Source: Reichenbachiella sp.
GTDB lineage: Bacteria > Bacteroidota > Bacteroidia > Cytophagales > Cyclobacteriaceae
Reading direction: 5' to 3'
Length of the DNA: 64,000 bases
Assembly (NCBI RefSeq): GCF_039969095.1
Contig: NZ_JBDVOL010000017.1
Coordinates: 94,039 to 158,038 of the forward strand
Positions 49,346 through 59,558 of this stretch are shown one piece after another. Positions within the stretch are counted from its first letter, which is position 1. Each line of letters starts with the position of its first letter. A program made the position numbers and the translations under genes. The notes under the pieces were generated by a model that had not been told where the DNA came from, ran no database searches, and worked only from the letters and a program-made list of their open reading frames with translations.

Positions 49346-50965
49346 TTACACAAGTGCCTTTTCCATATTTTCAGAATCCTTCCAATTTTTAAGAAGATCC
49401 GAACGGTTATCAGATAACAAATGTTGCTCAAAAAAATCAATCAGCGGCTGAATATGAATAGGTTGTTCGTCCCATTTATTTTCAAAGTCCTCAATGACGT
49501 GATGCTCTGCCACTTGCCTACCTTTGTAAATTTTACGAATTATGGGATGTAAAAAAGCACTCTTATTTGCATTCTTTATGTCATTCCTGTGTACCCTACT
49601 AATATTAAAGGGATTAGCCGCTTTTTCAAATATTTCATTACCATACTCCAATGTAATTGTATAATACTCATCCAAATTTGGACGGGCTTGCTTATGAAGA
49701 TAGTCCACTGGAATAGACTTAAGGTACTTGGCTTCACCACCATCTATTAAAATGGCATCACAAATGAATCCAAATTGTTGCCACAGTGCTGAGGTTCTAT
49801 TTATATTTTGAATTATCAAATTGGTCATTTCCTTGGACTCAGCCTTCACGTTTGAATATGGCCAATCCTTTCCCTTTATTTTCTTGTGAAGAATATGAAA
49901 GAGACATTCACAGTTGTATCTGAAACCATGAACAAAACCGGAAGTGGATTTTTTAAAATCCCTCATTTGGGTAATCGTTCCCGCAAAATACAGACCTTTC
50001 ACATTTACAGATTCCCACTTCTCATTCTGATCAGGAAACCTATCGTCAATTGTTAATTGTGGTTTTACTTGATCATCAAATATGGAAGCGTCAAACTTAA
50101 AGCCAGTGCACGCTATAATAGCGTCATAAATTAATTGTTCAACTTCTCCATCCGCATTACCATATTTAATCGTAGCAGCCAATGTGCCATCTTGTAATTT
50201 TTCAATCAAGTCAATATTCCCATCTATCAAAGCGTTCTGTGATTTTAGCTGATAGGTATCTAAAAAATTATTATTTACTGCTCTAACATGACCAACAAAG
50301 TGGGTTTTCCACGCCATTTTAACCGTATTGGGGCTGCAGACATGGATTTTTGACGCACTTGCTATTAGATGATCTGCCGTCTCCAATGCTGAGTTGCCTT
50401 TTCCCAAAATCAGTACTCTTTTGTTTTCGAATTCTTTTGTATCAACTGAACACTCAGTATATGGCACTACATGTTCAATACCATTAATCTCTGGTAAATA
50501 AGGCAAAGATGTACCTGTAGCCACTACTACGTTAGGACAAGTATACTTTTTGCCATTTCCCAAGTCGATACGAAACTCGTCATCGACCTTAGATATTTGC
50601 TCAACATTAGAGTTGAACTCGACCTTCAGGCTAAATTTTTTTCTGAAATTATCGAGGTACTCAACAAAAGCATCTGCATCGGGAAAATATTCTTTGGTTA
50701 GGTCTTTGAACAACGGTTCATACTCTTCACTCAAGAGAGAATTCCAATCAAAACGCATATTAATTTCCTTGTCTTCAAAACCGGTATGCACCTTGTTTAT
50801 CGAAATTAACTTACGGTGACGTGGAAATTGCCTAAAAAAAGCACCCGCCTCTTCAGCTTTCTCAAGTATAACATAGTCTATACTGTATTTTTCAAAAAAA
50901 TAACCGAGCTGAAGTCCAGCCGGACCAGCACCAATTACAACGACTTCTTTTTTAACTGAATTCAT
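49346..50965 (-). CDS. Two-dinucleotide-binding-domain flavoprotein (FAD + NAD(P)H; monooxygenase/TrxR-like) with a ~170-aa C-terminal extension
   Basis: VVVIGAGPAGLQLG (FAD GxGxxG), VVVATGT, RVLILGKGNSALETADHL (second Rossmann) and GLYFAGT. There is no WxWxIP halogenase motif and no FxGxxxHxxxY/W FMO/BVMO fingerprint. Confidence 0.75.
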   Translation of the reverse strand: MNSVKKEVVVIGAGPAGLQLGYFFEKYSIDYVILEKAEEAGAFFRQFPRHRKLISINKVHTGFEDKEINMRFDWNSLLSEEYEPLFKDLTKEYFPDADAFVEYLDNFRKKFSLKVEFNSNVEQISKVDDEFRIDLGNGKKYTCPNVVVATGTSLPYLPEINGIEHVVPYTECSVDTKEFENKRVLILGKGNSALETADHLIASASKIHVCSPNTVKMAWKTHFVGHVRAVNNNFLDTYQLKSQNALIDGNIDLIEKLQDGTLAATIKYGNADGEVEQLIYDAIIACTGFKFDASIFDDQVKPQLTIDDRFPDQNEKWESVNVKGLYFAGTITQMRDFKKSTSGFVHGFRYNCECLFHILHKKIKGKDWPYSNVKAESKEMTNLIIQNINRTSALWQQFGFICDAILIDGGEAKYLKSIPVDYLHKQARPNLDEYYTITLEYGNEIFEKAANPFNISRVHRNDIKNANKSAFLHPIIRKIYKGRQVAEHHVIEDFENKWDEQPIHIQPLIDFFEQHLLSDNRSDLLKNWKDSENMEKALV

Positions 50966-51535: not shown

Positions 51536-53062
51536 TCAATTCGTCTCCTTGATTTGAGTCAGTTTGTTTATAGAACTACTTAGCGAATCAATCCGTTGAC
51601 TATTGGCTTCAAGAATAAATTGAAGAATATCTGTAGAATAGCCTCCACTACCTTTGTCTTGCCCAGTTTCTTCTTGATATTTGTATGACTCTTCTGCCAA
51701 TTTTTTATGTGGCATCCTGAAGCTCTTTTGCATATTGCACAGCTTAAGAAGTGCCTGAGATGAGGCTACCACCTGATCGTTTGGTTTTTCTTCAAGCATA
51801 CGGATAGCCACATCCACCAGACTCTCTTTTCCTGAATAGAAGTCATAAATATCACGCATAAAGGACAAATTGAATGGAAGGTATTTGGTTTTAAATTCCA
51901 CATACTCTTCGTTCATAATTTGAGAACTCCAAAGCAGATGATCATAAACAAACATAGGTAGCTCCACCGCGCCTGGACCGATAAGTTCTTCATTGTTGAA
52001 TACTATTGGGTCATAGTAAAACCTAAGCTCTCTTGCAAAGAATTCTGGTGAAACTGTTCTATGCGCAAAAACTATAGCCTGAATAACGTGCTTAAAGTCA
52101 GCACCTGCTTTTTCACAAAGTTCTTCATAATATGGAGAATCTATTGGTGTATGATGCAACTTGATAAGGTGGTCAATTGCACCTTCCATTGCAGGAAATG
52201 ATTCTGTCACGCTATGCATTAAATCAAGCTCATCTTTTACTGAGGTGTACCTTCTTTTTCGATGACCATCTGGATTCCAAACGGTATAGTGAAGTAAGGT
52301 ATCTCTTGGAGGAAGGTTTGTTTTACGACTTAATTCGTCTAATACATATTCCAAATGCGGTATGGCTTCAATTGGCTCTATATCATGTCTTTTGATAGAA
52401 CCTAGAAAAATTCCAATGTCTCTCATTGAAGCCAGAGATGTATAGAAGTCAAACCCATCCAATTGCTCCGGAGTTGGAAGTTTACGACTCAGTAGACTTA
52501 CCAACCCATCAGCATCTCCATCAGCATTTAATTTCGGAATTAGGCTAACATATTCGTCAATACCAAGCGGATCCAGTTTTTTTACTTCTTCCTCCACCTT
52601 TAGCATTTGAAAGGCCGAGATTTTGTTGACTAGTTGCTGTGTCTCATCAATTGGCGAACGACTTACCTTCAACCAGTTCAAACATTCCTTTTCTAATCCA
52701 AAGGTGAAAATTTCAAGATCTCCATTCCCAAGATAGCTTTTATTCACCTTATTCATTGCAGCCTTAACATAGGGATCAAAAGAGACAAGCACAGCAATTC
52801 TTTCAAGACCTAATTTTTCAACATTGGGGAACCAGTCTGAATTTAGATACTCTCCAACCTCTTTACTTAATACCTTTAGATTTAGTTGATTACTATAGTG
52901 ATGCTTGACATTATTCTCTTTAATGAAGCTGCTCATAAATTCGCAACTTTCTCTTACATGTCTCACTTTTGGAAAACCTTGCCAGTTGGCGCCTATGGCA
53001 TTTAGCTCCGAGTCGTACCAAATGTGGCACCACTCATCTTTCATTAGATCAGTTTGTTTCAT
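51536..53062 (-). CDS. PrnB-like haem enzyme (monodechloroaminopyrrolnitrin-synthase family, IDO/TDO superfamily) fused to an uncharacterised N-terminal ~135-aa domain
   Basis: Residues ~150-508 contain SMRDIGIFLGSIKRH, TNLPPRDTLLHYTVWNP, GPGAVELPMFVYDHLLW, FRMPHKKLAEESY and KGSGGYS. I recall these as the conserved blocks of Pseudomonas PrnB, including the proximal His followed by GSGG. This recognition is from memory, not from a search. Confidence 0.7.
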   Translation of the reverse strand: MKQTDLMKDEWCHIWYDSELNAIGANWQGFPKVRHVRESCEFMSSFIKENNVKHHYSNQLNLKVLSKEVGEYLNSDWFPNVEKLGLERIAVLVSFDPYVKAAMNKVNKSYLGNGDLEIFTFGLEKECLNWLKVSRSPIDETQQLVNKISAFQMLKVEEEVKKLDPLGIDEYVSLIPKLNADGDADGLVSLLSRKLPTPEQLDGFDFYTSLASMRDIGIFLGSIKRHDIEPIEAIPHLEYVLDELSRKTNLPPRDTLLHYTVWNPDGHRKRRYTSVKDELDLMHSVTESFPAMEGAIDHLIKLHHTPIDSPYYEELCEKAGADFKHVIQAIVFAHRTVSPEFFARELRFYYDPIVFNNEELIGPGAVELPMFVYDHLLWSSQIMNEEYVEFKTKYLPFNLSFMRDIYDFYSGKESLVDVAIRMLEEKPNDQVVASSQALLKLCNMQKSFRMPHKKLAEESYKYQEETGQDKGSGGYSTDILQFILEANSQRIDSLSSSINKLTQIKETN

Positions 53063-53384: not shown

Positions 53385-55715
53385 CTAGTTCTTTACTAAA
53401 AATGGTTTGGTCTGTGTCACGTGATCTCTGTATGCAAATTTATAGAGGTAATAACCCGTTCGTAAGTTTTGCACATCGAGCTGGATGGTATGATGTCCAG
53501 CCGATTTCTGAACTTTAATCTGTCTTTCTACACGACCCCACAAATCAATAACTTCAATTGAAACAATCCCATCTTCGGGCAAATCAACGTCTAAGTTAGA
53601 GAAGCCATTCACCACTGGATTAGGGAAAATCTCAGATACATTAAACTCTAATTTATTTTCTAAAGTCTCTTCAAAACCTAAGTCTATGGTTCTTGCTGAT
53701 GGAGCGGAGTAAGCTACATATTCACCTTGTTTTACATATACAGCATATCCCCGAGCAGGTGCTTCTACCCAAGCTCTACCGCTTCCATAGACCTGAGTAG
53801 TTTGGCTGTTATCAAAAGCATTCACCAAAACAGTATTGTCCCAATTAGACCAGCTTGAAGGGGTGATGTCCACCCATAGCCCTTTAGTCGAACTACTGTT
53901 ATTAATCACTACAATCGCACCATCCTTGGTTCCATTTCCAGCACGTCTTGCAACGTATACATCATGTGCATCGCCAGATGGATATGGGTTCCCTACATCA
54001 CTCAGCACTTCAAGACTTCCTCCTAAATAGGTGGATCTTACGAACATCAATTTGTTGATGTCCTCTTGGAGGCTGGCTGGAGAAGTTACAGTCGTATTCG
54101 AATCATGGTTATCTACCAGTGTCACGTTGTAGTAGTGAGGATAGAATACACAAGGGCGACCTTCATGTGTCAGGATATAAGCATATCCCATTTTCCAGTC
54201 TTGAGTTACCCATTTGTCATGCTCCTTGCCTGTATCGTGGTTGTCCAACCATGTCACTACGGAAGTACCAGGCAGCGAATGACCGTTTCCATTTCTGACC
54301 ATACCGGCGTTGTTCAACCAGCGCATATCATAGCCGCTATTGCCATTACACATATCGGTCAAAGAAGATTTCAATGGAAAATCAAATCCATCGGCATCAG
54401 CTCCATCTGCTGCCAGGTCATTCACCCAGTCGTTGATTCTTGAATCCGATCCCCAGTATTCACCTACAATAAACCGTTGGTTTCCATTTAGTAAAGGCAA
54501 ACTATTTACCCAATCGGCTGCATAGTCGGCCTGAAATCCTCTAACAAAGTCCAATCGATAGCCGTCAAATCCGATTTCATTGGACAACCATTCTCCCCAA
54601 TCTTCGAAGCGATCTTGTACTACACTACTGTAGGTATTAAAGTCATTTCCAAAACCTTTGGTATTAGGGATAATCTCATCGCCTCCCCAGTCTCCCAACC
54701 AGTCATTACCATCTACTGGATGAAAGTGCGAATAATTCCAGGTCAAGTTAGGCTCTCCAGAACCTGTATGAGTGGCATAGCTAATGCCCGTATTGGTTCT
54801 GGCTTCCAAAGTGGTACTTGCCAGATTATTGCCATTGTACCACACCTCAGCAGGATACAAACCATGGTTTTGGTTGCCCCAATTCCAGCCACTTGTATTA
54901 TCTATGGCTTTGAGTTTAATCACAATGTCATGAGCACTTGATACAGTCACTTGATATTCATCAATGTCAGATGACGAACCAATAAATCCTCTCATGATTT
55001 GTCCAGATCCCGGAAAAACATCTGTATCTCCATTGCCACCGTTCGGCTCACTTTCCCAAGTATAAGTTGAATTATCTCCTGAGCCAGTCCAATCAATGGT
55101 CACTTCGTATCCGCGACTGTCATAACTACCCCAGTCCATTTCGAACCCTTTGATTTTTATATAATAGTCGCCTGTTCCAGCATTAGGAATCACCCATTTG
55201 ATCTCATTGGAAGGGTAAGGTACATGCTGAGAACCATTGGTATAAGCCTCAGCAAAAGTGTAATCTTTCACTGCTGGGTTCGATTCTTCGTCTTCGTCGC
55301 TAGAATAGACGTGATTCAAAATGATATCTGCATACACTTCAATCTTAGGCTGGCCTCCACTGGTGTCGTGCATGTCTGCAATCATATCTTCCAATTCGGA
55401 TCGACTTCCGAAACGAGTTTCGATTGATCCTTTTTGATTATAATTACCCAGATCATAGTGATCGTAAATACCATAGCCCATGTCCACAATTCCCCAATTT
55501 CCTTTGGCTGGTGATGGAAGCCATAGGCCTGTGAAGCCAGCATTCTTCAAATAAGTTGACTTATCAGCAAGATTGTCCCACCAGTCTCCGTCTAGGTTGG
55601 TTTCATCCACTGGAAGATTCCAGTAAAATGCTTGCATCATTACATCATCCTGCGCCTGACTGGCCGTGGCAAACAGAAATGAGCAACAAATCATTAATGT
55701 AATTTTTTTGATCAT
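53385..55715 (-). CDS. Secreted GH13 alpha-amylase with an inserted beta-sandwich module and a T9SS C-terminal sorting domain
   Basis: Signal peptide. GH13 conserved regions DIILNHV (I), GYRLDFVRGF (II), IVGEYW (III) and WLDNHD (IV). About 250 residues separate regions I and II. C-terminal IFPNPVVNGFSNLDVDL...GYYLYKF...FLVKN. Confidence 0.9.
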   Translation of the reverse strand: MIKKITLMICCSFLFATASQAQDDVMMQAFYWNLPVDETNLDGDWWDNLADKSTYLKNAGFTGLWLPSPAKGNWGIVDMGYGIYDHYDLGNYNQKGSIETRFGSRSELEDMIADMHDTSGGQPKIEVYADIILNHVYSSDEDEESNPAVKDYTFAEAYTNGSQHVPYPSNEIKWVIPNAGTGDYYIKIKGFEMDWGSYDSRGYEVTIDWTGSGDNSTYTWESEPNGGNGDTDVFPGSGQIMRGFIGSSSDIDEYQVTVSSAHDIVIKLKAIDNTSGWNWGNQNHGLYPAEVWYNGNNLASTTLEARTNTGISYATHTGSGEPNLTWNYSHFHPVDGNDWLGDWGGDEIIPNTKGFGNDFNTYSSVVQDRFEDWGEWLSNEIGFDGYRLDFVRGFQADYAADWVNSLPLLNGNQRFIVGEYWGSDSRINDWVNDLAADGADADGFDFPLKSSLTDMCNGNSGYDMRWLNNAGMVRNGNGHSLPGTSVVTWLDNHDTGKEHDKWVTQDWKMGYAYILTHEGRPCVFYPHYYNVTLVDNHDSNTTVTSPASLQEDINKLMFVRSTYLGGSLEVLSDVGNPYPSGDAHDVYVARRAGNGTKDGAIVVINNSSSTKGLWVDITPSSWSNWDNTVLVNAFDNSQTTQVYGSGRAWVEAPARGYAVYVKQGEYVAYSAPSARTIDLGFEETLENKLEFNVSEIFPNPVVNGFSNLDVDLPEDGIVSIEVIDLWGRVERQIKVQKSAGHHTIQLDVQNLRTGYYLYKFAYRDHVTQTKPFLVKN

Positions 55716-55776
55716 GTCGATTAGATTTTGAAAGTAACAGCATTTCTCAAATGCCGCCTGATTAACTATTAATCAA

Positions 55777-55800
55777 GTCTTCAAATGTGCCCTTGAAGAC
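55777..55800 (-). terminator. Hairpin between the AraC-type gene and the amylase gene
   Basis: 8-bp stem GTCTTCAA / TTGAAGAC with an 8-nt loop. No clear U-tract. Confidence 0.4.
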
Positions 55801-55890
55801 GATGAAAAACGTCCTATTTTCTAAAATCAGCCAAGAAACTAAAATATACAACACTTGGATACAACTCGTAACTAACTGATATTTTGACGG

Positions 55891-57321
55891 TTAAAGGGCA
55901 TAAGCTTTGAAATATTCTCGGGGGCTCTTATGTGTGATTTTTTTGAAGGCTAGGTTAAATGTAGACTTAGAATTGAAGCCCACCTCATGAGCCAAACCCA
56001 AATAGGTGAGTTTTTCTAATTTGCCACTATTGGCTAAATCAATAAATTCTTCAACTCTATAACCATTGACATAGTCTCTGAAATTTTGTTCAAAGTGTTC
56101 ATTCAATAGCTTAGATAGTATATGCGGTTTAGTCTCCATCAATTCTGCCAAGCGATTAACGCTCAATTCTGCCTCGTGATACACTTTTTCTTTTTCCATT
56201 AAATCACGGAGTTTGGGCAATAGCTCATCAGCTTTATCAATATGTAGAACCTGTGGTTTTTCTTTAAAAAATTGCGCGTCTTTCCACAACGCAATTACCT
56301 CTGTCCAAACCAATAGCGAAAGCACAACAAAAAACCATTTGTATTCACCCAAGTTCCCATTGGTCAGACCACACCCGTCAGTATAAAGACTAAAAAACAC
56401 AAAACATAGACTCACACCATTAAGAATTAAGACCCAAAGGGAAAATGAATACGGTCTTTCTGTTATTTTACTCCATTTCAAATCCCCAATCACTTTGATC
56501 AAATAGTAAAGTGTGATCATGGCTCCTCCTCCCATCAATAATGCCTTCCCCCAAGTTAAAAATCCACTTATCGATAAAGAGAAGAAGCTGAAAAAATCAA
56601 GATTCATCAATCTCAAAAAAGCAATCAAAGAAGCAAGAATGACAGGAATAAAATAATGATAGGTAACTGTCAGGTTTTCCTTGTGTTCAACTTGTTTGAT
56701 AAATAAGTAAGCCATAGGGCCCCAGACAAAAATGAGTGCCTGACCCAAAATAATCAAATAACTTTGCCAGATGGGATTGACCACAAAATAAGCTACAGCG
56801 CTTAAATAGAGCATACCAAAAAACCCGTGCAAAGTCACAAAAATCCGTCTTCTATTCGGATCTTTTTTGAAAATTCTAAATGAAAGTGTCAACAGTATGA
56901 TAGACAAGAATGCAATTGAGAAGTAATAAAATATCAAATATTCAAAACTTCGGGCACCACCTAAATCTTGCCAATTTTTAATTCTTATCGGTATGGGCTC
57001 TGATGACGATCGACTAACCAAAGTTCGATTAGGAATGTACTCATTCTCCGTCCCGGTTTCTACTTTCAACCAATCCCCTCTGGTAAATTTGTATTCTATT
57101 ACTGGCTCGGTAAAATATAGAATAACAGCTAATTGACCGTTGGGCTGCTTTCGCAAAAGATATTCTGGATCACTTGTATTCCAGTTATTGAAAGTGCCTG
57201 TAATAAAGATCGAATCTTGGGCTGGAGTTGTCTCTGGCAGAGACTCAATGATAAACTTGGTCTGACTCGAAGCAGAGTAGGACAAGCAAAATATGATCAA
57301 AAGCCCGTAGTAGTTTTTCAC
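55891..57321 (-). CDS. Membrane-embedded AraC-family regulator: signal peptide + CBM48/CBM20-like module + ~7 TM + cytoplasmic HTH
   Basis: SIFITGTFNNWNTSDPEYLL...IEYKFTRGDW resembles the GxFNNW glycogen/starch-binding module. Seven hydrophobic helices follow. The C-terminus is GFNSKSTFNLAFKKITHKSPREY (AraC HTH). Confidence 0.8.
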   Translation of the reverse strand: MKNYYGLLIIFCLSYSASSQTKFIIESLPETTPAQDSIFITGTFNNWNTSDPEYLLRKQPNGQLAVILYFTEPVIEYKFTRGDWLKVETGTENEYIPNRTLVSRSSSEPIPIRIKNWQDLGGARSFEYLIFYYFSIAFLSIILLTLSFRIFKKDPNRRRIFVTLHGFFGMLYLSAVAYFVVNPIWQSYLIILGQALIFVWGPMAYLFIKQVEHKENLTVTYHYFIPVILASLIAFLRLMNLDFFSFFSLSISGFLTWGKALLMGGGAMITLYYLIKVIGDLKWSKITERPYSFSLWVLILNGVSLCFVFFSLYTDGCGLTNGNLGEYKWFFVVLSLLVWTEVIALWKDAQFFKEKPQVLHIDKADELLPKLRDLMEKEKVYHEAELSVNRLAELMETKPHILSKLLNEHFEQNFRDYVNGYRVEEFIDLANSGKLEKLTYLGLAHEVGFNSKSTFNLAFKKITHKSPREYFKAYAL

Positions 57322-57537
57322 TGTTGTCTAAATTCAAATTGACTTTGACAAATTCAACCTGAGCATTTAATCAAAAAAGTGAAGCGTGATTCACCCTTGT
57401 CTAATGCGCTGATTGAAATAAAACGTGCTTTTTGAAGCTTCAATTTACTTAGAAATCCTTAGAAGTACCCATTCCTTAATTCAATAATTTGTCTCAAAGC
57501 TATTTTGATTAATGAATGGAATGACTGAATTTAGAAT

Positions 57538-57980: not shown

Positions 57981-59558
57981 TTATTTAACATTAATCCTTT
58001 GTGCATATACCTCTGCACCCATATTGATTTGTATTACATAAATACCTCTAGGTAACAAAAGAGAAGAAGCATCAAACCTAATCTTTCCACTTTCAATGTT
58101 ATATGGAAGTTCAAAACTTAAACTCCCCGTGAGGTCATAAACTTTTGCTATTATTTGCTCCTCCCCTGAATAATTGATGTAAAAATCCTCGCCAGATGCA
58201 ACTGGCATTGGGTATATGGTAAGGCCTGCATTTTGATTCAATTTATAATTGACTTTCTTGATAGGAAAAAATTCATTGGCCCCATCATAGTCTACCTGCT
58301 CCAACTGGTAATAATAGATGCCTTTTTGTGAAGGATAATCCTGGAGTTCGTACTTTTTCTGTTCGTTCGTTGTTCCATGACCAGCTACCCAGTCTATAAT
58401 CTCAAAATCTACTCCATTAGTTGAGCGATGGATATTGAAATGATCGTTGTTCAACTCACTAGCTGTTTTCCAAGAAAGGGCTATGTGATCCAGTTGAATA
58501 TCCACATCAAATGAAAGTAAGGAAACTGGCATACTAGCACAAGCGGATCCGCAACAACCACCACCTCCACCACTACAGTTTTCGTCTGCTCCACCAGTTA
58601 CAGTAGGATCTGTTCCTGAATAAGTGCCACCTACGACCATGCCACCTCCATCTACAGTAGTAGTACCACCTCCAGTGTTGTCATAGTCTCCATCAACATC
58701 TATAGTACCTCCGCTTTCTGCAGTGGTACTGCCACTACCGCCATTGTCAAAATCTCCTCCTATGCTGATCGATCCGCCATTGCTCACTTCTAAAATTTCC
58801 GAGCCTCTATTGTCAAAATCACCTGTGATAACTACATGAGAATTATTGATATACAATTCATTATTCTGCAAATGCCCTTTTACATCCAAGGTCGTATTAT
58901 TATTAAGATACAATTTACCGCCACCATTCATAGATAATGCAGTCTGAGATACACCGTCGGCATAACCCACTCCTACATCCAAATCAGAATCGCTCACCGT
59001 GGTTGTTCCACTGTCTATAAATAGGTCTCCGCCAATATTGAATGTACAACTAGTAACAGTAGCTTCTTCGAGTTCGAAATCACCTGTTCCTGTGGTAGTG
59101 AAATTACTATTAGAAAGTGTTAGCGTATTTAAATTAGAACTTAAAGAACCAGAATTGATCGTACTATTTGATACAGTAATATCTGCTCCAGTAAGACTTG
59201 CAGCACCTGTTGCATTTATAGTTGCTCCATCGATCAAGAGGTCTCCACCTCCGCTAGTACTCAAATCACCCGAAATGGTATATGTTCCACCTGTAATTGT
59301 GTTATTTCCATTGCCATCAGTAAAACTTCCTAAGACAATATCTGCGCTCGATGCAGTGATGGAACCACTGGCCTTCAATGTGAGTTTACCAGTTACAGTC
59401 ATGGTCACTCCGGGATTCACAATTAGGGAACCACCGCTTACGGTTAAGTCACCAGTTGTAGTACAATCAGATGATATAGTGCCACTTGTTGGGCATTGTG
59501 CTGACACACGCATACCTAGTCCAAGTATGCTCGCGCATAATATAATTTTTCTCTTCAT
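57981..59558 (-). CDS. T9SS-secreted beta-helix repeat surface protein
   Basis: Signal peptide, ~320 aa of G/T/S/D/N-rich imperfect repeats, a Cys/Gly linker CSGGGGGCCGSACAS, an FN3-like domain (LSWKTASELNNDHFNIHRSTNG) and a Por sorting tail (LTIYPMPVASGEDFYINY...GIYVIQI...RINVK). Confidence 0.7.
   Translation of the reverse strand: MKRKIILCASILGLGMRVSAQCPTSGTISSDCTTTGDLTVSGGSLIVNPGVTMTVTGKLTLKASGSITASSADIVLGSFTDGNGNNTITGGTYTISGDLSTSGGGDLLIDGATINATGAASLTGADITVSNSTINSGSLSSNLNTLTLSNSNFTTTGTGDFELEEATVTSCTFNIGGDLFIDSGTTTVSDSDLDVGVGYADGVSQTALSMNGGGKLYLNNNTTLDVKGHLQNNELYINNSHVVITGDFDNRGSEILEVSNGGSISIGGDFDNGGSGSTTAESGGTIDVDGDYDNTGGGTTTVDGGGMVVGGTYSGTDPTVTGGADENCSGGGGGCCGSACASMPVSLLSFDVDIQLDHIALSWKTASELNNDHFNIHRSTNGVDFEIIDWVAGHGTTNEQKKYELQDYPSQKGIYYYQLEQVDYDGANEFFPIKKVNYKLNQNAGLTIYPMPVASGEDFYINYSGEEQIIAKVYDLTGSLSFELPYNIESGKIRFDASSLLLPRGIYVIQINMGAEVYAQRINVK

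Follow-up and report, generated by a model that had tools for sequence, protein, structure and literature searches.

A membrane-bound AraC-type regulator with a predicted starch-binding module, paired with a T9SS-secreted alpha-amylase in Reichenbachiella

To our knowledge, only a few types of polysaccharide-sensing regulators are known from Bacteroidota, namely the hybrid two-component systems (HTCS), the pairs of ECF (extracytoplasmic function) sigma and anti-sigma factors, SusR, the cytoplasmic repressors and, since 2026, BguR. Two of them, SusR and BguR, are regarded as membrane-associated one-component glycan sensors (doi 10.64898/2026.01.10.698779), and the authors of the BguR study pointed out that only SusR had a comparable architecture and that regulation in marine Bacteroidota is largely unexplored (bioRxiv 10.64898/2026.01.10.698779). 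The present analysis concerns a further regulator, encoded in a 64,000-nucleotide stretch of a Reichenbachiella sp. genome (assembly GCF_039969095.1, contig NZ_JBDVOL010000017.1, positions 94,039 to 158,038; hereafter the window), where its open reading frame (ORF), a minus-strand one opening with GTG, covers 55891-57321. According to the ORF translation, Pfam and AlphaFold2, its 476-aa product carries a signal peptide, a module of the starch-binding type, seven transmembrane (TM) helices and an AraC domain, and the next gene on the same strand encodes an alpha-amylase of glycoside hydrolase family 13 (GH13) that is predicted to be secreted by the type IX secretion system (T9SS). The reading that we favour, with moderate confidence, is that the protein is a phosphorelay-free one-component activator which senses periplasmic maltooligosaccharides and turns on the amylase. 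Whether it is also the compact prototype of an unrecognised Bacteroidota receptor class, in which one to three starch-binding-type carbohydrate-binding modules (CBMs) and a seven-helix domain outside Pfam are fused directly to an AraC domain, is a proposition for which we hold the chances to be evenly balanced.

SusR of Bacteroides thetaiotaomicron, which responds to maltose, is like the present regulator membrane-associated and free of a phosphorelay, and it links the sensing of alpha-glucan oligosaccharides beyond the cytoplasm to the activation of starch-degrading genes. The Reichenbachiella protein differs from it in having a CBM20/48-type sensor, seven helices and an AraC DNA-binding domain, and in being placed beside a single T9SS amylase instead of a SusC/D locus; no SusR-type family turned up in the Pfam and NCBIfam scans, and no direct alignment to the SusR sequence was made. 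BguR of Formosa agariphila likewise adjoins the genes for the degradation of its glycan, and a conserved motif stands between it and the first of its targets. It is, however, a 940-aa protein in which a tandem beta-propeller and Y_Y_Y sensor is connected by one TM helix to a GerE helix-turn-helix (HTH) domain, and it senses a beta-glucan, activates laminarin loci and controls a SusC/D polysaccharide utilization locus (2026 preprint), whereas in the present regulator Pfam found no Reg_prop, Y_Y_Y or GerE domain and the predicted helices number seven, not one. The HTCS of Bacteroides share with it a periplasmic glycan sensor and a C-terminal AraC-type domain on one inner-membrane polypeptide, and a profile match to PDB entry 12aw (“hybrid two-component system protein”) was indeed obtained, confined to the HTH region. 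A Pfam scan of 88 members of the regulator family detected no HisKA, HATPase or receiver domain in the query or in any of these members, so that the regulator is not an HTCS and no phosphorelay is expected; the sensor fold is a different one as well. What is new here is the combination of sensor, membrane domain and output, without SusC/D, the logic as such being already known from SusR and BguR. The initial annotation of the locus, made from the DNA alone, had set its regulatory logic apart from that of SusR, which does not hold, since SusR and BguR are membrane-associated one-component sensors as well and only the architecture and the missing SusC/D differ.

Precedents also exist for the individual parts. 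In RsgI of Clostridium thermocellum, a CBM exposed outside the membrane does the sensing for a transmembrane protein that regulates glycoside hydrolase genes, which in our comparison makes it the nearest precedent for a CBM as a transmembrane sensor; it is nevertheless a single-pass anti-sigma factor of Firmicutes that undergoes autoproteolysis and releases a SigI-type sigma factor, whereas here the DNA-binding domain is part of the same chain. RsgI anti-sigma factors are cited in PMC10766802. The CBM48 of AMPK-beta and the CBM20 of STBD1 share with the regulator the predicted beta-sandwich fold and the Trp/Lys/Trp contact residues, and the AMPK CBM works as a sensor rather than as an enzyme appendage (PMC2642990). 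The similarity to these eukaryotic, cytosolic proteins, whose output is kinase regulation, is marginal (E ~1e-3, 17-23% identity). A similar overall layout is that of the 7TMR-DISM receptors, in which seven TM helices connect an extracytoplasmic carbohydrate-binding-like module to an output domain in the cytoplasm. The two differ in that PF07695 and PF07696 were unmatched at E <=0.01 in the 88 regulator members, on which ground the TM domain was rejected as a 7TMR-DISM domain; we know of no AraC output reported for that family, and papers mentioning both terms contained no link between 7TMR-DISM and AraC. Full-text searches, subscription journals lying outside their scope, turned up no description of a protein that unites a CBM with seven TM helices and an AraC domain.

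Among the 5.8 billion proteins searched, the regulator has 511 homologues, 118 of which aligned over its full length. That number, together with the clustering of the invariant residues in the N-terminal module and the HTH, shows that this is not a chance ORF. The top homologues are full-length proteins of ~465-515 aa, named only generically as AraC or HTH proteins, and come from Reichenbachiella (84% and 72% identity), Cyclobacteriaceae, Ohtaekwangia, Chryseotalea, Pseudochryseolinea, Salinivirgaceae and Bacteroidales. In the 118-member alignment the residues G42, F44, N45, W47, K78, R81, G82, E88, N93, N98 and R99 of the module are invariant, as are N116, W117, D119 and G121 at the junction that follows it, where they form part of the invariant motif NWxDLGG (residues 116-122); the other invariant cluster is the HTH. 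In distant members the identity amounts to 51% in the module, 26% in the TM bundle, 28% in the linker and 62% in the HTH. The ortholog of R. faecimaris is 72% identical to the query, with higher values for its neighbours (amylase 95%, PolA 95%, YjbQ 82%), and most of the divergence between the two regulators, too, lies in the TM bundle (56% identity, against 26% in the distant members). The AlphaFold2 model built on the family alignment (mean pLDDT 89.6, pTM 0.74) consists of a beta-sandwich at residues 21-113, the helical membrane domain, and an all-helical domain at 364-475; compared with the PDB by Foldseek, the full-length model matched AraC DNA-binding domains and starch-binding CBMs, with weak seven-helix resemblances in addition. 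The first 20 residues, MKNYYGLLIIFCLSYSASSQ (57262-57321, minus strand), read directly from the sequence, form a signal peptide or signal anchor, which ends in A-Q-V in homologues and over which the confidence of the model is low.

The sensor module itself (residues 21-125; 56947-57261, minus strand) is predicted to be a periplasmic beta-sandwich of the CBM20/CBM48 starch- and glycogen-binding type, as indicated by Foldseek, profile and Pfam comparisons, and contains the motifs IFITGTFNNWN (residues 38-48) and IEYKFTRGDW (75-84). Modelled in isolation by AlphaFold2 (pLDDT 86.8), it folds into seven strands, and nearly all of its top 50 Foldseek matches in the PDB are CBM20, CBM48 or CBM41 domains (E 5e-4 to 1e-2, TM-scores 0.45-0.61). 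These include the CBM20 of STBD1 bound to maltotetraose (E 5e-4) and a pullulanase CBM41, together with the CBM20 of cyclodextrin glucanotransferases, beta-amylase and GDE5 and the CBM48 of AMPK-beta and branching enzyme. A profile of the module, run against PDB sequences, matched the AMPK-beta CBMs at E ~1e-3 and a CBM-bearing amylase (8dge) at 5e-4. The binding-site residues point the same way: in AMPK-beta, W100, K126 and W133 contact the carbohydrate, and their mutation abolishes glycogen binding (PMC2642990). In the hidden Markov model alignment W47, K78 and W84 of the module correspond to W99/W100, K126 and W133 of AMPK-beta, and are conserved in 100%, 100% and >=90% of the 118 members, respectively. 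At the level of Pfam, the query matches AMPK1_CBM (PF16561) over residues 37-82 with an E value of 0.008 and 16.8 bits, the cut-off being 26.8, and 44 of the 88 members match the same family at E <=0.01, the best at 1.4e-7. Relatives carrying the module exceed the cut-offs outright, as in the five-copy protein P0121 (AMPK1_CBM 50.1, CBM_48 39.1, CBM53 33, and also X25) and in the histidine kinase L099 (AMPK1_CBM, 29.1 bits). By its modelled fold and its binding-site residues, the module is therefore assigned to the CBM20/CBM48 starch-binding clan, with the query itself falling short of formal Pfam membership.

The seven-helix TM bundle (residues 129-347; 56281-56937, minus strand) is the fast-evolving part of the protein, with AlphaFold2 helices at 129-150, 155-180, 183-213, 221-238, 257-280, 289-317 and 328-347, and none of the 88 members scanned had a Pfam family match in it. 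Foldseek matches of the bundle to G protein-coupled receptors and to an adiponectin receptor were rejected, since an rmsd of 6-11 A and E >=0.05 were taken to reflect a generic seven-helix resemblance. The predicted topology rests on the loop charges, the family-mean number of lysine and arginine residues being 2.0, 1.8 and 2.1 in loops TM1-2, TM3-4 and TM5-6, against 0.0, 0.5 and 0.4 in the alternate loops. This strong positive-inside pattern places the module outside the cytoplasmic membrane and the HTH inside, and the topology is the same whether the leader is cleaved or uncleaved. A linker of lower AlphaFold2 confidence and low conservation spans the ~43 residues between TM7 and the AraC DNA-binding domain (Pfam HTH_18, PF12833; 55906-56151, minus strand), which is matched at residues 391-472 (E 3.7e-11, 43.6 bits, cut-off 33.6) and was found in 88/88 members. 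Foldseek aligned this domain with the AraC-type structures 6swi, 3lsg and 3oou at target-normalised TM-scores of 0.74-0.81, and the region also matches 6swi, 3lsg and 2k9s by Foldseek and profile. From the letters alone, the initial annotation had recognised a starch-binding-like module, seven TM helices behind it and, placed in the cytoplasm, an AraC HTH. Each of these parts has been borne out computationally, the first by Foldseek on the predicted structure of residues 21-125 and by the profile, the second by AlphaFold2 and the loop charges, which give an N-out, C-in orientation, and the third by a PF12833 score above its cut-off.

The presumed target is the GH13 alpha-amylase gene (776 aa; 53385-55715, minus strand), assigned by NCBIfam and PDB matches and by its linkage to the regulator. 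An amylase orthologue lies directly downstream of the regulator and on the same strand in 19/19 loci of Cytophagales, Marinilabiliales and Bacteroidales that have a full-length regulator and enough 3' DNA. These comprise the window itself (1 of 1), nine reference genomes (9 of 9, 49-95% identity), six further distinct loci on metagenome contigs (6 of 6) and three look-ups of distant members (3 of 3); the reference genomes are two Reichenbachiella, a Salinivirgaceae, a Pseudochryseolinea, two Bacteroidales, a Cyclobacteriaceae, a Natronoflexus and a Marinilabilia. When all ORFs of 16 loci were clustered all against all, the regulator and the amylase were the only families common beyond the genus, and since no other family is shared at that distance the pair travels as a self-contained cassette. 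Within it the amylase is far better conserved than the regulator (95% against 72% identity in the comparison with R. faecimaris). Pfam scans of the 26 largest ORFs of the window revealed no SusC/SusD-type gene, and the amylase start follows the regulator stop after exactly 175 nt, both in agreement with what the initial annotation had recorded.

That spacer (55716-55890, minus strand, from the ORF coordinates) holds the putative control region. Its length is 122-198 nt in 15/16 loci measured, with up to ~490 nt in L008, and the corresponding gap is 137-192 nt in 8/9 reference genomes, L008 again being longer. It contains a conserved 23-bp imperfect inverted repeat, the candidate operator GGCTGATTTTAGAAAATAGGACG (55810-55832, minus strand), defined by conservation and a position weight matrix (PWM); its half-sites are GTCCTATTTT and GACTGATTTT, and its consensus across the loci is G-N-C-C-T-A-T-T-T-T-N2-3-A-A-A-A-T-M-R-G-W-C-G. 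Apart from this repeat, the spacers cannot be aligned with one another. With a PWM built from ten loci, the site at 55810-55832 scores 27.9 and the next best position in the window 16.7. This runner-up falls inside a methylmalonyl-CoA mutase gene, and further regulon members within the window were rejected accordingly; autoregulation was discounted as well, the PWM having found no operator upstream of the regulator at 57322-57537. The highest-scoring match of each locus falls in its spacer, and in a hold-out of nine loci outside the matrix the best match of the whole 4-14-kb locus lay there in 9/9. Many loci outside Reichenbachiella contain a second, weaker site ~42-43 bp upstream of the operator.

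Beginning 20 nt after the operator is a -7-like promoter box, CACATTTG (55782-55789, minus strand). The pattern [C/G]AnnTTT[G/C] stands exactly 20 nt after the repeat in 18/19 loci, with the A present in 19/19 and the TT in 18-19/19; for the looser nAnnTT pattern, offset 20 is found in 18/19 loci and any other offset between 0 and 45 in <=6. The box fits the -7 consensus of Bacteroidota, TAnnTTTG (PMC7641319). Because the box stands at this fixed distance, the operator would reach from about -55 to -33, adjoining the -33 element or taking its place, which is a position typical of an activator. Paralogous AraC genes of unrelated Bacteroidota are followed, 0-115 nt after their stop codons, by related palindromes of the type GTCCGAA...TTCGGAC. 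In the form GTCCGAA-N8-TTCGGAC these were seen in L013, L016, L021, L038, L051, L053, L054, L064, L069, L074, L075 and L077, and in L017 a palindrome of this type lies upstream of an AraC-type gene. These sequences suggest that this whole clade of DNA-binding domains has one type of operator in common, along with a “regulator then target” arrangement of the genes. As for transcripts, run X10 (“RNA?”) gave only 130-210-nt fragments over the amylase, spacer and regulator, and runs X1-X6 are DNA assemblies.

In the mechanism that we infer, and which extends to the ligand, to the binding of the operator by the regulator, to activation as opposed to repression and to the transfer of the signal across the membrane, a small amount of amylase would be made and exported via the T9SS. 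The enzyme would free maltooligosaccharides from external starch or glycogen, and these, on reaching the periplasm, would bind as alpha-1,4-glucan to the CBM-type module of the inner-membrane regulator. The signal could then be transferred as a conformational change, by way of the rigid NWxDLGG junction and on through the helices, or several receptors could cluster on a single multivalent glucan chain. In response, the AraC domain would engage the 23-bp palindrome abutting the -33 region and activate the amylase promoter, resulting in a positive feedback loop without a SusC/SusD locus. Since the module is periplasmic, its likely ligand is a maltooligosaccharide released by the amylase and not bulk extracellular starch. 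The initial annotation had proposed a direct coupling of extracellular alpha-glucan binding to transcription; the coupling of a sensor to amylase transcription is supported by the strict pairing in 19/19 loci and by the phased, conserved operator, while the extracellular part has to be given up, the module being periplasmic in a diderm cell.

It has to be noted that part of the evidence weighs against this starch-sensing activator, and some of it lends itself to a different account, in which the protein does regulate the amylase, with the CBM-like module not acting as an alpha-glucan sensor. A cue from the membrane or a small molecule would then be sensed by the TM bundle, or else the partner of the module would be a different glycan or a protein, a candidate being the amylase in transit to the T9SS, so that secretion load would be reported. 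Paralogues of ~370-390 aa that consist of the TM part and the HTH without an ectodomain are common, and because they exist the bundle may itself be the sensor. Secreted PF00756 esterases carry the module as well, for which reason the fold alone is no proof of alpha-glucan specificity. The query's CBM48-type match stays under the cut-off (AMPK1_CBM, 16.8 against 26.8 bits), and the Foldseek TM-scores of the module are just 0.45-0.6. Two of the five relatives with two or three modules (P0138 and P0174) have no carbohydrate gene nearby, and in 4/4 such relatives scanned with the matrix the operator is absent. Finally, the sites recognised by single AraC domains are normally asymmetric and ~20 bp long, so that a near-palindrome of 23 bp would be an unusual one. 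Set against the non-glucan account are the facts that only the HTH is better conserved than the module, in which the sugar-contacting Trp/Lys/Trp triad is invariant, that the TM bundle is the least conserved part, and that the sole conserved partner gene is an alpha-glucan hydrolase; on balance we consider this account unlikely.

A different output from the same parts, namely a repressor released by the ligand or a ligand-triggered proteolytic release of the AraC domain, seems to us more improbable still. It draws on the fact that the direction of regulation is read from the operator position alone, and on the TM7-HTH linker, which is modelled with lower confidence and is poorly conserved. Most AraC/XylS proteins are activators, however, and the operator lies upstream of the -7-like box without overlapping it and ends at about -33, as would be expected of an activator; the clustering of the ORFs of 16 loci revealed no conserved protease gene nearby, and BguR is an activator (bioRxiv 10.64898/2026.01.10.698779). 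The palindrome, in turn, might end transcription of the regulator gene or be bound by some unrelated factor, in which case the pairing would be conserved for reasons that have nothing to do with direct regulation. Its location 3' of the regulator gene and the T-rich run that follows it in many loci would suit a terminator, and the initial annotation had indeed taken it for a weak hairpin. As an RNA structure it is nonetheless unremarkable in the eight loci folded, with z-scores against shuffled sequences of -1.5 to +1.0 and energies of -0.1 to -5.3 kcal/mol, and the best RNA fold often ignores it. In most loci the stem has mismatches at positions 2, 4 and 5 even though the sequence itself is conserved, and a terminator scanner called none in the spacer. 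The fixed spacing to the -7-like box and the related palindromes after paralogous AraC genes also speak for a DNA site, so that the hairpin was rejected in favour of a conserved DNA palindrome, and this last account is, in our judgement, very improbable.

The module is found well beyond this regulator family. Its profile, run against 1.84 billion representative proteins, matched 3023 clusters (at 50% identity) with E <=1e-3 and 192 with E <=1e-30, in architectures that include three to five tandem copies alone and one to three copies ahead of the seven-helix domain with its AraC part. It also stands at the periplasmic N-terminus of histidine kinases, followed there by TPR, one TM helix, HisKA or HisKA_3, and HATPase; such module-headed kinases were seen on the metagenome contigs L099, L101, L102, L106 and L108, and may be two-component counterparts of the AraC fusion. 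Its fusion to histidine kinases indicates that evolution uses the module as a sensor domain. Elsewhere it heads T9SS-secreted PF00756 esterases or stands as three to five copies alone (L091, L093-L096, L100, L105, L109, L110, P0121 and P0144). Among the two- and three-module AraC relatives, L098 and P0150 lie beside a GH13 gene and P0171 beside a SusC/SusD pair. An extension of the amylase link to these relatives gave a mixed result and was not retained, their link to alpha-glucan genes being partial. The two-module P0171 (L113) is divergent from a SusC/SusD/DUF5004/DUF4961 locus, and the three-module P0150 (L114) from a different GH13 amylase with ricin-B lectin domains and a T9SS tail; the operator is absent from both.

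If the receptor class considered above is borne out, it would represent a third phosphorelay-free solution to glycan sensing, structurally unrelated to SusR and BguR, that works with a T9SS-secreted enzyme and without SusC/D, and whose module would have been recruited independently by histidine kinases. A CBM, normally an appendage of enzymes, would then do the sensing for a one-component transcription factor with seven membrane helices, and the two-gene cassette with its operator and promoter would make a self-contained starch or maltodextrin switch. With two genes, one operator and one promoter, the system is compact and easy to study, the sensor, the DNA-binding domain and the site being separable, and a cultured carrier exists in Reichenbachiella faecimaris DSM 26133 (L001). 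More broadly, the findings point to a SusC/D-independent, T9SS-based foraging for starch in Cytophagales and Marinilabiliales, and offer a functional handle on thousands of unannotated proteins, namely those of the 3023 module clusters, sensor kinases among them.

The amylase deserves some further description. NCBIfam alpha-amylase models, including PRK09441, match it with E values down to 1.7e-95, yet under the equivalog cut-offs, and BLA-type amylases of the PDB are matched at ~1e-45 (8e-45). The GH13 conserved regions I-IV, on which the catalytic Asp, Glu and Asp are located, are recognisable in its translation as DIILNH, GYRLDFVRG, GEYW and WLDNHD, so that the T9SS GH13 amylase named in the initial annotation is confirmed. 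Relative to the BLA-type structures it has ~170-190 extra residues between regions I and II, in the area of domain B (residues ~145-332), and this insertion is kept in all orthologues, all of which are ~770-800 aa long. The Pfam Alpha-amylase model PF00128 did not match the protein, probably because of this large insertion. Its C-terminus carries a type A T9SS sorting domain (residues 696-768; 53412-53630, minus strand), matched over residues 696-770 by PF18962 (34.9 bits, cut-off 27) and TIGR04183 (32.6 bits, cut-off 23).

Upstream of the regulator lies a divergent UPF0047 gene and, beyond it, a gene for a T9SS-tailed protein and polA. In one lineage of metagenome-assembled genomes, a 933-aa protein is encoded directly upstream of the regulator-amylase pair (L117, 2073-4874; L118, 626-3427), with faint Reg_prop/Y_Y_Y matches, i.e., sensor repeats like those of HTCS or BguR. 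Elsewhere in the window, the minus-strand gene at 57981-59558 encodes a 525-aa protein with Thr/Gly/Ser-rich repeats and a Cys-rich stretch, CSGGGGGCCGSAC; it has a weak T9SS sorting domain (22 bits, under the cut-off) and is conserved only within Reichenbachiella. On the other side of the amylase, the product of the minus-strand gene at 51536-53062 is 508 aa long; its residues 204-492 form a PrnB (monodechloroaminopyrrolnitrin synthase) domain, preceded by ~200 N-terminal residues without assignment. The gene is followed on the same strand by a flavin-monooxygenase-like gene (49346-50965), and the two may form a small tryptophan-modifying pair.

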